12,517 nt of DNA from a virus: the UHGV virus genome UHGV-1669581; one strand, written 5' to 3'. The position numbers and the translations under genes were made by a program. Shown here one piece after another: positions 3,583 through 12,517 of the stretch; the stretch's first letter is position 1, and each line of letters opens with the position of its first letter. The notes under the pieces were generated by a model. That model did not search any database and was not told the DNA's origin. It saw nothing but the letters and a program-made list of their open reading frames with translations.

Positions 3583-4329
3583 ATGCGACATAATTTTTCT
3601 AAAGACACTATAAAAAAATTAGCAGAGCGGGCAGCATTCATTTGTTCAAACCCTTCATGCCCTAGATTGACCATTGGCCCATCAATTGATGGCAATAAAT
3701 CAATCAAGACAGGAGTTGCTGCTCACATATGTGCAGCATCTCCTGATGGCCCACGCTATGACATGTCACAATCAGAAACAGAAAGGAAGTCAATTAACAA
3801 TGGCATATGGCTGTGTGCTACTTGTTCTGTATTAATAGATAAGAATCAGGGGCTAGACTATCCGGCACCTGTATTAAGAAAATGGAAAAAAGATCATGAA
3901 AGCCTTATAAGCTCCTGTCTTGAAGGTTCGATTAATATTACCTTCGATGCTTTGAAATATATTCAACAGCATGATGAAAGAAATCTGGCAAAAAAGATTA
4001 TAAATGAATTGGATGATAAAGGGGCTTTGTTCGTAGAATATCATCTTGAAAACCCCTGTTTTGTTGCCGAATCACTCAAAGAGTTAAGAACATGTTTGAC
4101 CTCTTTGCTTTCTCAAATCCCAGATGAATCACCTCTATTTATCGTTTGCAAGTCAATTCGAGAAGCATGCCGTTATTATATGAACAACACTTCTAAAGAC
4201 GCAGGGATTAAAGAGTTAGAATTTTCGTTGGGAGCTGTCAGAAAAATCGTAGGTATCAACGTTAAAAGAATATCAGAAACCTACGGGGTTAAACCTAGCC
4301 CACAATTATCTACCATAATGCCAGATTAA
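3583..4329 (+). CDS. HNH-like nuclease-domain protein with an uncharacterised C-terminal domain; AT-rich moron between Q and the holin (candidate accessory or defence gene)
   Basis: 248-aa ORF on the strand opposite the late genes, visibly AT-rich. The N-terminal ~110 aa carry a zinc-finger HNH-like signature: C21-x4-C26 (CSNPSC), AAH48ICAAS..GPR, N72/N73-G-I-W-L-C78-x2-C81. The C-terminal ~135 aa have no motif I recognise. Followed by its own hairpin terminator. Confidence 0.6.
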   Translation: MRHNFSKDTIKKLAERAAFICSNPSCPRLTIGPSIDGNKSIKTGVAAHICAASPDGPRYDMSQSETERKSINNGIWLCATCSVLIDKNQGLDYPAPVLRKWKKDHESLISSCLEGSINITFDALKYIQQHDERNLAKKIINELDDKGALFVEYHLENPCFVAESLKELRTCLTSLLSQIPDESPLFIVCKSIREACRYYMNNTSKDAGIKELEFSLGAVRKIVGINVKRISETYGVKPSPQLSTIMPD

Positions 4330-4338
4330 ATCTGTTAC

Positions 4339-4381
4339 GCAGCAACAAAGTTAAACTCTATGTTGCTGCCTTAATTTTATT
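4339..4381 (+). terminator. Rho-independent terminator of the moron gene
   Basis: GCAGCAACA-(13-nt loop)-TGTTGCTGC (9-bp stem at 4339..4347 / 4361..4369) followed by CTTAATTTTATT. Begins 10 nt after the moron stop and overlaps the 3' end of the Q gene on the other strand. Confidence 0.65.
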
Positions 4382-4745
4382 ACTCCATTTCTAAACGAAT
4401 ATCCAGCATCGAGAGACAACCATCTATAAACCCTTCAGCCAACTGTATCTCTATACGTATCAATTTCTCATCTTTTTTGTATGCTTTTGCTATCTTCCTT
4501 TTCGAGATGCCATACAGGTAATGAGCCACAATCAGAGAGTGCTCATACGGTTTTCTCTTCTTAAGAAGAGCAAGACAACCTTCAATAATTAATGCATCAC
4601 TATCTGAACAAGCCTGACGTGTTTTGCTTGTGTAGGGAAGAAGCCCCTTAAACCCAGCAGCTATAGGCGAATAGTCTACTCCAGAACTATCACTCGCCGC
4701 CCATGCTCCCCAACGCTCCAGAACCATCTGAATATCACGCATCAA
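4380..4745 (-). CDS. Late-gene antitermination protein Q-like (small, QuuD/DLP12-type)
   Basis: 121 aa, last gene of the early-right operon and immediately upstream of the lysis region. The N-terminus (MRDIQMVLERWGAWAA...AAGFKGL) matches my recollection of small Q-family antiterminators. Cys/His-containing. Confidence 0.6.
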   Translation of the reverse strand: MMRDIQMVLERWGAWAASDSSGVDYSPIAAGFKGLLPYTSKTRQACSDSDALIIEGCLALLKKRKPYEHSLIVAHYLYGISKRKIAKAYKKDEKLIRIEIQLAEGFIDGCLSMLDIRLEME

Positions 4746-10517: not shown

Positions 10518-10614
10518 ATACCCTCCAAATATTGCGCGTTATGCATGTTATTTCACGCAATTATTTTGCGCAAGTTGATTTGCTTATCGCGCAATAAAGA
10601 AATGTAATAAACGC
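10518..10614. promoter_or_regulatory. Divergent PR/PRM-like promoter and operator region with three operator-like sites at 24-bp spacing
   Basis: Three 15-bp dyad-type sites sharing TTGC/GCAA half-sites: TTGCGCGTTATGCAT (10532..10546), CGCAATTATTTTGCG (10556..10570), TTGCTTATCGCGCAA (10580..10594). Candidate PRM: -35 TTGCTT, -10 TAATAA, ending 5 nt before the cI ATG (leaderless-like). Candidate PR on the minus strand: TTGCGC / TAACAT. Confidence 0.55.
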
Positions 10615-11307
10615 ATGAACATAGGAAACCGAGTCAGACAACTTCGCCAAGCGAAGAACATGAAAATCGCCGATCTCGCTGAAGCAATAGGAGTAGATGC
10701 GGCGAACATCTCGCGCTTAGAAACGGGTAAGCAAAAACAATTTACCGAACAAACACTGAGTAATATTGCCAAGAGCTTAGGTGTTGATATTGCTGATCTC
10801 TTTACCTCTGCCCACAAAAGTAATACTGTATATAAAAACAGTAATAATGAGGATGTTGCGCAGGTGAAGGATGTGTTCCGTATTGAAATGCTGGATATCA
10901 GTGCCAGTGCGGGAAATGGCCTTATCCAGGGCGGTGATGTCATTGATGTGATTCATGCCATCGAATACAGAACTGATAATGCTGTATCAATGTTCGGCGG
11001 ACGACCAGCCAATCACATCAAAGTTATCAACGTTCGTGGGGACAGTATGTGTCCAACCATTGAGCCAGGAGATCTCATCTTCGTTGATGTCAGCATCAAT
11101 CAGTTTGATGGTGATGGTATATATGTCTTTGGTTTTGATGACAAAATATACGTTAAAAGACTTCAAATGATTCCTGACAAACTGCTGGTGATTTCTGATA
11201 ACCAGATTTACCGTGAATGGGGAATTACTAGCGAAAACGAACACCGATTCATGGTCTTTGGAAAGGTCTTAATCAGTCAGTCGCAAACCCTTAAGAGACA
11301 TAATTAA
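10615..11307 (+). CDS. cI: CI-type prophage repressor (N-terminal HTH, C-terminal S24 LexA-like autopeptidase)
   Basis: HTH (MKIADLAEAIGVDAANISRLETGK) plus an S24 domain with catalytic Ser in VRGDSMCPTIEPGD and Lys in KIYVKRL. A candidate Ala-Gly cleavage site lies in ASAGNG. Confidence 0.9.
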   Translation: MNIGNRVRQLRQAKNMKIADLAEAIGVDAANISRLETGKQKQFTEQTLSNIAKSLGVDIADLFTSAHKSNTVYKNSNNEDVAQVKDVFRIEMLDISASAGNGLIQGGDVIDVIHAIEYRTDNAVSMFGGRPANHIKVINVRGDSMCPTIEPGDLIFVDVSINQFDGDGIYVFGFDDKIYVKRLQMIPDKLLVISDNQIYREWGITSENEHRFMVFGKVLISQSQTLKRHN

Positions 11308-11326
11308 CCTCAATATCCCATCCATC

Positions 11327-11350
11327 GGCCACCGAAAGGTGGCTTTTTAT
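11327..11350 (+). terminator. Rho-independent terminator downstream of the repressor gene
   Basis: GCCACC-gaaa-GGTGGC followed by TTTTTATT, 20 nt after the cI stop. Confidence 0.65.
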
Positions 11351-11361
11351 TACCTATAAAT

Positions 11362-11412
11362 TTGCATATTTCGCAAACATCACTTGCATATCTCGCAATT
11401 TAATTTTATCTT
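11362..11412 (+). promoter_or_regulatory. OL/pL-like operator pair with a candidate rightward promoter
   Basis: Two near-identical 15-bp sites, TTGCATATTTCGCAA (11362..11376) and TTGCATATCTCGCAA (11384..11398), 22 bp apart, with the same TTGC-N7-GCAA architecture as the cI/cro operators. The second overlaps a candidate -35 TTGCAT, with a weak -10 TATCTT 17 bp downstream. Confidence 0.45.
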
Positions 11413-11564
11413 TTGTTCCAGACCAACTACAGGATTACAACAAAATCTGGTTGCAACACGGTGCATGTGTCGTAAGCAGTCAGTAAATGTCAAAAACGAA
11501 CAGGCAGGACGCCCACGAAGTAGCCGCCTGGGGCATATGAAGTCCTGGATGATTCGTTAGCAAC

Positions 11565-11601
11565 AAAAAAGCGCCCTACAGGACGCTTAGCTCTTTAACA
11601 A
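11565..11601 (+). promoter_or_regulatory. Hairpin followed by an rrn-type boxA match (GCTCTTTAACAA) in the leader upstream of the first early-left ORF; possible antitermination site
   Basis: GCTCTTTAACAA at 11590..11601 matches the rrn boxA consensus as I recall it (TGCTCTTTAACAA) at 12 of 12 positions. Immediately upstream is an imperfect hairpin GCGCCC-taca-GGACGC, giving the hairpin-then-boxA order of rrn antiterminators. The same hairpin on the minus strand is followed by TTTTTTG and could act as a terminator. Confidence 0.35.
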
Positions 11602-11646
11602 TCTGGTCCCCATCAACAAGTAACTGATAACTTGAGGAGATGTGAA

Positions 11647-11853
11647 ATGCACAAAACAGAACCCAAAATCGTCGCGCCTGGCTACACAGATGAGGAAATT
11701 TATGAGTGGATGACAAAGAAGCTGGCAGCTATAAACCAGCTTCGTGAAGTGCTGTCTTATCGACAGGAAACAATAGACGCCTTAAAAAAACTGGATCAGG
11801 AAATCACGGTTTTATCACAGGATGTTACTTTAGATATTGTGCAGACAAATTAG
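11647..11853 (+). CDS. Hypothetical small protein (68 aa), first ORF downstream of the pL-like region; not N-like
   Basis: ATG at 11647 with a GAGGAG RBS 7 nt upstream; the ORF track's 11632 start is a TTG. Acidic/helical sequence with no arginine-rich motif. AT-rich. Its 3' end overlaps the convergent ORF by 29 nt. Confidence 0.45.
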   Translation: MHKTEPKIVAPGYTDEEIYEWMTKKLAAINQLREVLSYRQETIDALKKLDQEITVLSQDVTLDIVQTN

Positions 11854-12259
11854 GATCCCATTCATTTTCGTCAAAATCATCAAAGTGATGAATTTGTGAT
11901 CTCCAGTCTCGATAATCTAAAAATTTCTGGGCGGTTACGCTTATTTTATCAAGTGTGAGTTCATCCTGAATTGAAAGAAGAAGTTCATCAAATTTCATCT
12001 CATTAATCTGTTTTGGCATCCAGTGATGCTTCATCAGAATAAGGTGAACCAGAGCCTTTTTCCCATTCAACTGATTATAGGGAGTGCCGAATTTCTTCCG
12101 GTGCTCATGTAAGACAAGGTCCAAAAGAGTAAGTAATGTTGCCCTTGATTCAACTTTGCTTATTTCGACTGATGACACTACCCCACTGATTTCAATGCCC
12201 CGATACTTTCCAACATTTTCACAGTGGGATTTGTACAGCGTATAGATATTACCGGACAT
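11825..12259 (-). CDS. Hypothetical protein (144 aa), AT-rich moron convergent with the early-left ORF
   Basis: Good RBS (AAAAGGAAAAGAAA-ATG). Visibly AT-rich with atypical codon usage. No recognisable domain; the C-terminus is acidic (FDDFDENEWDP). Direct repeats lie upstream. Confidence 0.55.
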   Translation of the reverse strand: MSGNIYTLYKSHCENVGKYRGIEISGVVSSVEISKVESRATLLTLLDLVLHEHRKKFGTPYNQLNGKKALVHLILMKHHWMPKQINEMKFDELLLSIQDELTLDKISVTAQKFLDYRDWRSQIHHFDDFDENEWDPNLSAQYLK

Positions 12260-12283
12260 TTCTTTTCCTTTTGCGTTGTTGGG

Positions 12284-12323
12284 GATAACCAGATTAACCG
12301 AATCCTTGTTGTTGGGGAATAAC
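12284..12323. repeat. Two direct repeats, GTTGTTGGGGATAAC and GTTGTTGGGGAATAAC, 23 bp apart, immediately upstream of the 144-aa ORF
   Basis: Read directly from the sequence (12285..12299 and 12308..12323). Located 25-65 bp upstream of the minus-strand start codon at 12259. Confidence 0.5.
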
Positions 12324-12517
12324 TAGGTCCACCTCGCCTGATGTGGCTAAAAGCAGGCACATAACAGCTAAGTATTTTCAACCAGAGAGAATCCTTAGCG
12401 TTGTGGTGAATGCGGCTCAGCGCACGCGGGTTAAGGTTGAGGCTGACAGTCGACCTTCTGTGGATACCCACCCGCCTGGTGTGCAACCTTCGCCAGGCAC
12501 CGGGAGGCACCCGGCAC

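Follow-up and report, generated by a model that had tools for sequence, protein, structure and literature searches.

How early-left genes are expressed in lambdoid phages without an N protein is an acknowledged gap, and for N-less phages of the ST64B/LLS type a put-like mechanism was suggested, as a guess, in a 2025 study (PMC12315714). Elements of the boxA type are known from settings that involve no N: the early leader of phage T7 carries one, described as a boxA anti-termination element, whose mutant has a phenotype (PMC3709561), and the boxA of CRISPR arrays in Salmonella, Vibrio and other bacteria protects long untranslated RNA from Rho without a phage protein, an effect equally established for rRNA (Stringer et al. 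2020, PMC7665894). The rrn-type boxA is bound by NusB:NusE with an affinity of 5-8 nM, compared with ∼85 nM for the boxA of lambda nut, a difference of about tenfold (PMC2800207). The present analysis concerns UHGV virus genome UHGV-1669581, a stretch of 12,517 nucleotides (nt) referred to as the window, whose early-left (pL) leader contains on the plus strand a boxA of the rrn type, GCTCTTTAACAA, at 11590-11601. We consider it probable, by a modest measure, that this boxA is functional on the pL transcript, where it would recruit host Nus factors without N and keep Rho off across the antisense cassette that it accompanies.

The 12-mer is identical to the boxA of the E. coli K-12 rrnH leader (L011:2116-2127), which bears out the identification made in an earlier, sequence-only reading of the window. 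With a phage-type extension it becomes GCTCTTTAACAATCTGGT (11590-11607). The segment GCTCTTTAACA (11590-11600, plus strand) fits the published gamma-proteobacterial boxA consensus GYTCTTTAANA (PMC5725501). GCTCTTTAACAA was the sole match in the window even when two mismatches were permitted, and no second boxA was found on either strand of the 12.5 kb, hence none in the pR operon. The same reading had held the 12-mer unlikely to arise by chance, which stands in part: the consensus was observed once in the window against an expectation of 0.06, yet 11 of 200 shuffles contained at least one match. A chance origin of the match in this single window is only weakly excluded, and the case for the boxA therefore rests on conservation. 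A precedent for N-independent action of a boxA in a phage early leader is provided by T7, whose element is identical to GCTCTTTAACAATCTGGT over 18 nt, including the six bases past the rrn 12-mer, and sits 63 nt downstream of promoter A3.

Placement of the boxA on the pL transcript is predicted from the oL operators TTGCATATTTCGCAA and TTGCATATCTCGCAA (11362-11398), which would mark the early-left promoter. The boxA lies ∼190-230 nt downstream of these operators and past the cI terminator. A simple promoter scan based on hexamers called no sigma-70 promoter at oL, and pL, its start site and its plus-strand direction are placed from the operators and the gene order.

Conservation was assessed with a scan of IMG/VR anchored on the hairpin preceding the boxA alone (AAAAGCGCCC-N3-5-GGACGCT), and thus blind to the boxA itself. 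Every hairpin found in leader context was followed by 1-2 nt and then by GCTCTTTAA[C/A]AAT, usually continuing CTGGAT. Among 20 distinct variants of this hairpin+boxA module downstream of the leader RNA described below, 19 retained GCTCTTTAA[C/A]A, with variation confined to the hairpin loop, the linker and consensus position 10 (the “N”); the single non-intact module is also mutated in the leader RNA. The boxA thus appears to be under purifying selection, its substitutions falling as expected for a NusB/NusE site. The module was found in 1093 of 5426 complete E. coli genomes (∼20%) and is unannotated in all of the records listed.

A hairpin is present before the boxA (11569-11588), as the sequence-only reading had stated, although its likening of the pair to the boxB-boxA order of rrn leaders did not survive inspection of the two strands. 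On the plus strand, the stem is interrupted by a C·A mismatch, its folding energy is -7.5 kcal/mol, and UUAGCUCUUU comes next. Read on the minus strand, with G·U in place of the mismatch, the 8-bp stem is perfect (five G-C pairs), is capped by a tetraloop, folds at -11.5 kcal/mol and runs directly into UUUUUU. The terminator scan called the minus strand only, as an intrinsic terminator of cargo transcription composed of AAGCGUCCUGUAGGGCGCUU then UUUUUU (11563-11588), which combines the GC-rich stem-loop, the adjoining U-tract and the position downstream of a minus-strand gene that characterize such terminators. The A-tract of the hairpin is kept in every variant though the surrounding sequence changes, and across IMG/VR the same hairpin occurs as a generic terminator in many phage contexts. 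No sequence similar to rrn boxC (TGTGTGGG/UGUGUGGG) was found downstream of the window boxA. A boxB-boxA-boxC architecture was therefore rejected, boxC being absent and the hairpin, which always follows an antisense gene, being better formed on the opposite strand before a U-tract.

The antisense gene in the window is a cargo (moron) gene of 144 amino acids on the minus strand (11825-12259), which matches phrog_5286 (E = 1.5e-90) and is annotated in phages SfIV, Kati and 689R6. A large minus-strand open reading frame (ORF) ends 50-300 nt downstream of the module at all 20 distinct hairpin+boxA loci and, with the inclusion of Klebsiella phage Kp4882-1, where an antisense ORF ends 16 nt downstream, at 21 of 21 loci. 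These ORFs are 144-255 amino acids long and come from at least four unrelated families, namely phrog_5286 (window), phrog_6315, phrog_1244 and phrog_7681. Since an antisense ORF is found at every module, the families differ, and the cassette is conserved at its two ends (11563-11606 and 12275-12328) while its cargo changes, comparison of the loci identifies the hairpin and boxA as that end of an exchangeable antisense cargo cassette which is nearer to pL. The association rests on the boxA-positive loci and was confirmed by PHROG matches; some minus-strand ORF was also present at 38 of 68 boxA-less loci, a noisy count that includes spurious ORFs of 60-80 amino acids.

In a mosaic map built with BLAST, the module lies at the edge of a variable hotspot (11559-12328), and the insertion point itself varies, being directly past the leader RNA in the window and past other leader elements in L110, L055 and L183. 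The cassette is AT-rich relative to its flanks, and the cargo gene of the window is low in GC (0.33-0.43). Its promoter-side end (12275-12328, minus strand), shared with PhiR29_1 around a different cargo, contains the direct repeats GTTGTTGGGGATAAC (12275-12289) and GTTGTTGGGGAATAAC (12308-12323), a possible operator or promoter for cargo expression. A second, weaker terminator-like hairpin was called downstream of the cargo gene (11718-11743, minus strand), with a 9-bp stem and the tail TTTGTC, inside a 68-amino acid plus-strand ORF.

The constant pairing of module and antisense gene would also be expected if the plus-strand boxA had no Nus function and the ∼45-nt block were kept either as the 3′ untranslated region and terminator of the cargo mRNA or as a homologous joint for cargo swaps. 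The conservation of both cassette ends around different cargos, and of the flank past the boxA, would suit such an explanation, as would the chance expectation of the consensus in one window, which is not negligible; a speculative extension would have the minus-strand 3′ end (..AUCCAGAUUGUUAAAGAGC-hairpin-U6) act as an anti-boxA RNA. We nevertheless regard the absence of a Nus function as unlikely. Substitutions spare the 10 specified boxA positions and strike the loop, the linker and the “N” position, and the 18-nt identity is with a functional T7 element and falls on the strand transcribed by host RNA polymerase. Moreover, in the T5-like Providencia phage PR1, the leader RNA is succeeded by a boxA, and both the hairpin and the antisense gene are missing.

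The interpretation that we favor, a functional boxA on the pL transcript, can be cast as the following sequence of events. Upon derepression, host RNA polymerase would leave pL, transcribe the structured leader RNA, and read through the hairpin, which would terminate the opposite strand only. NusB-S10 (NusE) would bind the boxA as it emerges and, joined by NusA, NusG and SuhB, assemble an N-independent antitermination complex of the rrn/T7 type on the polymerase. So equipped, the polymerase would be shielded from Rho termination for the next 0.7-1.3 kb, where the RNA is almost untranslated: it is antisense to the cargo gene and afterwards comprises a long structured leader, with yfdP, yfdQ, xis and int lying beyond. 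The hairpin would thereby end the cargo mRNA, and the boxA would offset the polarity that insertion of the cassette would impose on pL. Nus binding, Rho sensitivity and read-through are predicted here from features observed in the DNA: sequence identity, strand, position, conservation pattern, cargo association and the absence of N.

The long structured leader to yfdP begins downstream of the cassette. It is a conserved, untranslated plus-strand region of ∼400 nt, of which the start (12329-12517) lies in the window and the remainder beyond it, and it is shared with SfII, SfV, ST64B and PhiR29_1. The corresponding coordinates in relatives are L003:1545-1960 and, in SfV, L002:5585-5995, and the SfV equivalent folds with z = -5.2. 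A plus-strand intrinsic terminator, GGTACCAG..CTGGTACCGTCCTTTTT, is located ∼30-75 nt past the window end and is kept in seven relatives, with and without boxA. A 25-bp hairpin overlaps its U-tract, and the two together look like an attenuator. Given the antisense cargo followed by a noncoding leader with a terminator, the pL transcript faces >1 kb of nearly untranslated RNA and at least one terminator, in phages without N. A match of this leader to STnc100 (RF02076) at 12378-12517 was sub-threshold and truncated at the window end (25.5 bits versus a gathering score of 47), and in the full-length relative Kati STnc100 was likewise below threshold. Several GenBank records annotate a 226-amino acid ORF over this RNA-like region.

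Several observations weigh against an antitermination role for the boxA. In immunity, the nearest relatives are SfII, SfV and e14; all three have the leader RNA and the operon downstream, and all lack the boxA, which is therefore dispensable for the operon and an accessory module rather than the core antitermination device of the phage. The mosaic map makes this explicit: SfII has 11300-11558 and 12329-12517 in common with the window, SfV and ST64B only the ∼70 nt at 11492-11558 and the block from 12329 (from 12384 in ST64B), PhiR29_1 has 11492-11606 and 12275-12517, and SfIV, Kati and 689R6 have everything from ∼11490. Some of the boxA-less relatives (the SfII, SfV and e14 group) still have small antisense ORFs. 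The hairpin-linked copies may all stem from one mobile module, in which case the counts are not independent, and the flank TCTGGAT is likewise conserved, which hitch-hiking would fit equally. The plus-strand RNA over the cargo has no marked C>G bias of the kind typical of strong rut sites; GC-skew was in any case uninformative as a rut-site proxy over the antisense stretch. Against intrinsic terminators, of which there is one just past the window, complexes of the rrn type perform poorly. Finally, as the suhB example shows, the effect of a boxA can also be to promote termination by Rho (PMC5725501).

The expectation of the sequence-only reading that the element be conserved in related prophages thus holds within the module and fails for SfII, SfV and e14. 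Its proposal of N-independent, NusB/NusE-dependent antitermination of pL retains the support of a boxA conserved as a NusB/NusE site and of the T7 precedent, in the narrower form of an accessory function.

Negative control as in suhB was considered for this locus, whereby Nus-bound boxA, or pairing of the boxA with the Shine-Dalgarno region, would repress translation of the 68-amino acid ORF and lead to Rho termination, damping the operon. The boxA ends 46 nt before the ATG at 11647, inside a published 50-nt criterion (PMC5725501), and in the minimum free energy fold of the leader the boxA segment GCUCUUUAA (11590-11598) pairs with the Shine-Dalgarno region UUGAGGAGA (11632-11640). Most variants of the module, however, have no plus-strand ORF past the boxA, the antisense gene coming next, so that such repression cannot be the conserved function, and we judge it very unlikely. 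The boxA:Shine-Dalgarno pairing is specific to the cassette variant present in the window.

Every nut site includes a boxA, and a host often harbors more than one lambdoid prophage, from which it might be argued, as in the second option offered by the sequence-only reading, that the window carries a cryptic nut site whose N-like protein comes from another part of the prophage or from a different prophage. This we find scarcely credible. No conserved boxB-type hairpin follows the boxA, the flanks of which diverge within 10-15 nt, and the pR operon, in which the ORFs of cro and the cII-like gene overlap, has no nutR-like boxA. The claim that no N-like gene is nearby proved correct: a scan of 10 window ORFs gave no N-like protein, and the plus-strand ORF past the boxA (11647-11853; 68 amino acids, phrog_1744), annotated as a coding sequence in Kati and 689R6, is acidic, not arginine-rich, and not N-like. 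Consistent with this, N is not annotated in SfII, SfIV or SfV, nor is it reported for them in the SfIV genome paper (PMC3851460). The record of mEp460 (GenBank JQ182728), checked as a “Nus-dependent, N-less” relative, contains neither the boxA nor the leader RNA and was uninformative, and the mEp021 group was set aside as unrelated and reliant on the N-like Gp17.

No part of the leader is more widely conserved than a structured RNA of ∼70 nt (11492-11563, plus strand), which lies 30 nt upstream of the boxA; neither this RNA nor the setting of the boxA in a cargo cassette was noted in the sequence-only reading. The fold is a three-helix junction (P1, P2 and P3), with strong covariation in P1 and P3 and in agreement with RNAalifold, and the loops AGGACGCCCACGAAGUAGCC, GGCAUAYGAA and GAUGA are near-invariant. 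In an alignment of 26 sequences, 94.4% of cells were paired, a value equaled in none of 500 shuffles and compared with ≤47% in slid controls. With 77 distinct sequences, in an alignment fitted to the model, 96.7% were paired and compensatory changes occurred at all 10 P1/P3 pairs. For P2, the GGC has two possible partners that no covariation separates. The RNA is single-copy in the window (94.8 bits), and the window search gave no second copy in the pR operon. Rfam returned no match for the RNA or the boxA region at gathering score or at E ≤ 10, and literature text searches found no paper containing the core sequence. CsrA-type GGA motifs and a hammerhead-like CUGAUGA core, both noted by eye, were discarded as not invariant (ZF40 has UAGAUGA).

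The 70-nt RNA was found just past the early-left promoter in SfII, SfV, SfIV, K-12 e14, ST64B, phiNP, ZF40, YeP1, SPN3UB, mEp237 and Klebsiella phages, and also in Gifsy-like phages and in the pre-early region of PR1. The e14 copy (L008:2501-2573) lies between ymfK and ymfJ, and RNAs of the SfV/e14 type start ∼20-25 nt past a TTGACA-N16-CATAAT promoter. The leader stretch that contains the RNA was matched in about one-third of E. coli genomes. Two subfamilies are discernible: A, with CGAAC...GAUGAUUCG, and B, with CCACC/UCAUC...GAUGAGGUGG. Leaders of the B type, and that of Kp4882-1, have a second conserved element, TAACGCGCAGYAGGU..AAACGUUCCGC-YRGCC-GGCG.UAAGGCAAA (L236:2560-2620, L237:2560-2620 and L007:2960-3000), with compensatory changes in a small stem-loop (CGCY/RGCG); the window lacks it. 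Past this second element, many B-type loci have as their first ORF one for a small conserved protein that begins MIDFARKP.

On the strength of this covariation and distribution, the 70-nt RNA is an apparently undescribed structured RNA family of Enterobacterales prophages and a T5-like Providencia phage, and a candidate for a cis-acting antiterminator or for an RNA that binds RNA polymerase or a host factor. Common to all relatives, it is a better candidate than the boxA for the general antitermination device of the operon. It is a tentative possibility that the RNA represents a new class of cis-acting, protein-free antiterminator, functionally put-like and unrelated to put, which in a subset of phages would form an N-free “nut” with a T7/rrn-type boxA.

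A composite, protein-free nut-like site, in which the 70-nt RNA would be the real cis antiterminator in the manner of HK022 put, the boxA would stabilize or extend its action, and the combination would override the terminator ahead of yfdP, draws on several of these observations. The RNA is far more widespread than the boxA, shows strong covariation, and always lies 10-90 nt past an early-left promoter, and its presence in lambdoid and T5-like phages with no obvious shared early protein points to a host target. The plus-strand terminator downstream is conserved in all relatives, with or without boxA, and the authors who suggested a put-like mechanism did so for phages of this very type (PMC12315714). 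A boxA follows the RNA in two independent arrangements, the second being that of PR1, in which promoter, 70-nt RNA, 10 nt and CGCTCTTTAAAAAT succeed one another with no hairpin and with plus-strand genes next; by its sequence this is a second, independent association. The two elements are nonetheless separable, since a boxA occurs without the RNA in Kp4882-1 and T7 and the RNA without a boxA at 68 of 89 distinct loci. Nor does the RNA resemble put in sequence or covariance model, and it forms a three-helix junction rather than two tandem stems and has no second copy in the pR operon. Taken with these points, the composite site seems to us rather unlikely.

The comparison with put was made with HK022 putL, located by a published primer, and with the annotated putL-like RNA of HK639, read directly. 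BLAST against the HK022 genome gave no similarity to the 70-nt RNA, and covariance model R1 of the RNA found nothing in HK022 or HK639 at E ≤ 10. By inspection, the HK639 RNA resembles HK022 putL and not the 70-nt RNA. Words shared with put (ACGAAC and CAGGAUGA) at similar spacing had suggested homology, which was rejected as unsupported by BLAST or by the covariance model. A partial boxA-like sequence that is off consensus, GCTCTTTGCGA, is present in HK639 (L238:34225-34240, minus strand) ∼10 nt past the two put-like stems, inside the feature annotated as putL-like.

The window as a whole is the early region of an SfII/SfIV/SfV-like lambdoid phage or prophage with its left operon on the plus strand. 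The cI gene (S24 peptidase and helix-turn-helix domains; 10615-11307, plus strand) is closed by an intrinsic terminator at 11327-11344 (plus strand; 7-bp stem then a T-run, called by the terminator scan), which is annotated as a terminator in SfII. Operators of the form TTGC-N7-GCAA occur at 11362 and 11384 and, between cI and cro, at 10580, and nowhere else in the window. The minus strand carries cro, a CII-like gene, O and further genes as far as the Q antiterminator (4380-4745). The 68-amino acid plus-strand ORF and the 144-amino acid minus-strand cargo ORF are convergent, with a 29-nt overlap at 11825-11853, and may be a co-regulated pair; neither had a PADLOC or Pfam match. Between the Q antiterminator and the presumed lysis genes, in opposite orientation, is a 248-amino acid ORF (3583-4329, plus strand), likely a defense moron, whose N-terminal half gave matches to the PADLOC candidate defense family PDC-M68A (E = 7.5e-27) and to HNH-endonuclease effector models. 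In the pR operons of SfV (L002:2817-3005) and ST64B (L009:242-430), adjacent matches to C4 antisense RNA (RF01695) and isrK (RF01394) lie on the minus strand; neither is present in the window at gathering score.

The locus thus offers two concrete cis elements, a T7/rrn-type boxA and a covarying leader RNA, that bear on early-left expression without N. If the 70-nt RNA is an antiterminator, it would explain such expression in the N-less SfV-, ST64B-, e14- and Gifsy-like prophages and in at least one T5-like phage. The coupling of the boxA to a cargo terminator suggests a design rule for morons, whereby a cassette carries its own remedy for the transcriptional polarity that it causes, and such a rule bears on prophage induction, the expression of cargo genes, and the engineering of long untranslated transcripts. 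The novelty of the boxA lies in the occurrence of a T7/rrn-type element, linked to antisense cargo, in the leader of an N-less temperate phage; greater novelty attaches to the leader RNA.

Among the known systems, T7 has its boxA in the promoter-proximal leader of an early transcript made by host RNA polymerase (from A1-A3), the position predicted for that of the window, and is like the window in having no N protein. T7 is, however, a lytic podovirus with no adjoining opposite-strand terminator, antisense cargo or 70-nt RNA, whereas the boxA of the window is an optional element of temperate lambdoid prophages, carried along with a cargo cassette. The rrn leader, with its boxB-boxA-boxC order and its Nus/SuhB/S4 complex, shares with the window the 12-mer GCTCTTTAACAA, a hairpin ending a few nt upstream, and independence of N. 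The two diverge directly after the 12-mer (TTTATCA in rrn, TCTGGT in the window), and the window differs further in that boxC is absent and the hairpin is a minus-strand terminator. The boxA of CRISPR arrays, which belongs to a host locus with noncoding repeats and has been tested experimentally, follows the same logic as that proposed here for crossing the antisense cassette.

The boxA of the suhB 5′ untranslated region (Baniulyte et al. 2017) is, like that of the window, a consensus boxA within ∼50 nt of a start codon, but it represses translation and promotes Rho termination, whereas most modules of the window type have no downstream plus-strand ORF. The nutL sites of lambda, P22 and phage 21 resemble the window in placing a boxA in a lambdoid pL leader where host Nus factors are expected; the window differs from them in having no boxB past the boxA, no N and no nutR, and in having a boxA of the high-affinity rrn type. 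The put RNAs of HK022 and HK639 are the counterpart of the 70-nt RNA in size (∼70 nt), in position directly past pL of an N-less lambdoid phage, and in being structured with conserved loops. They are set apart from it by their two tandem stems and by the single occurrence of the 70-nt RNA, which has no equivalent of putR.

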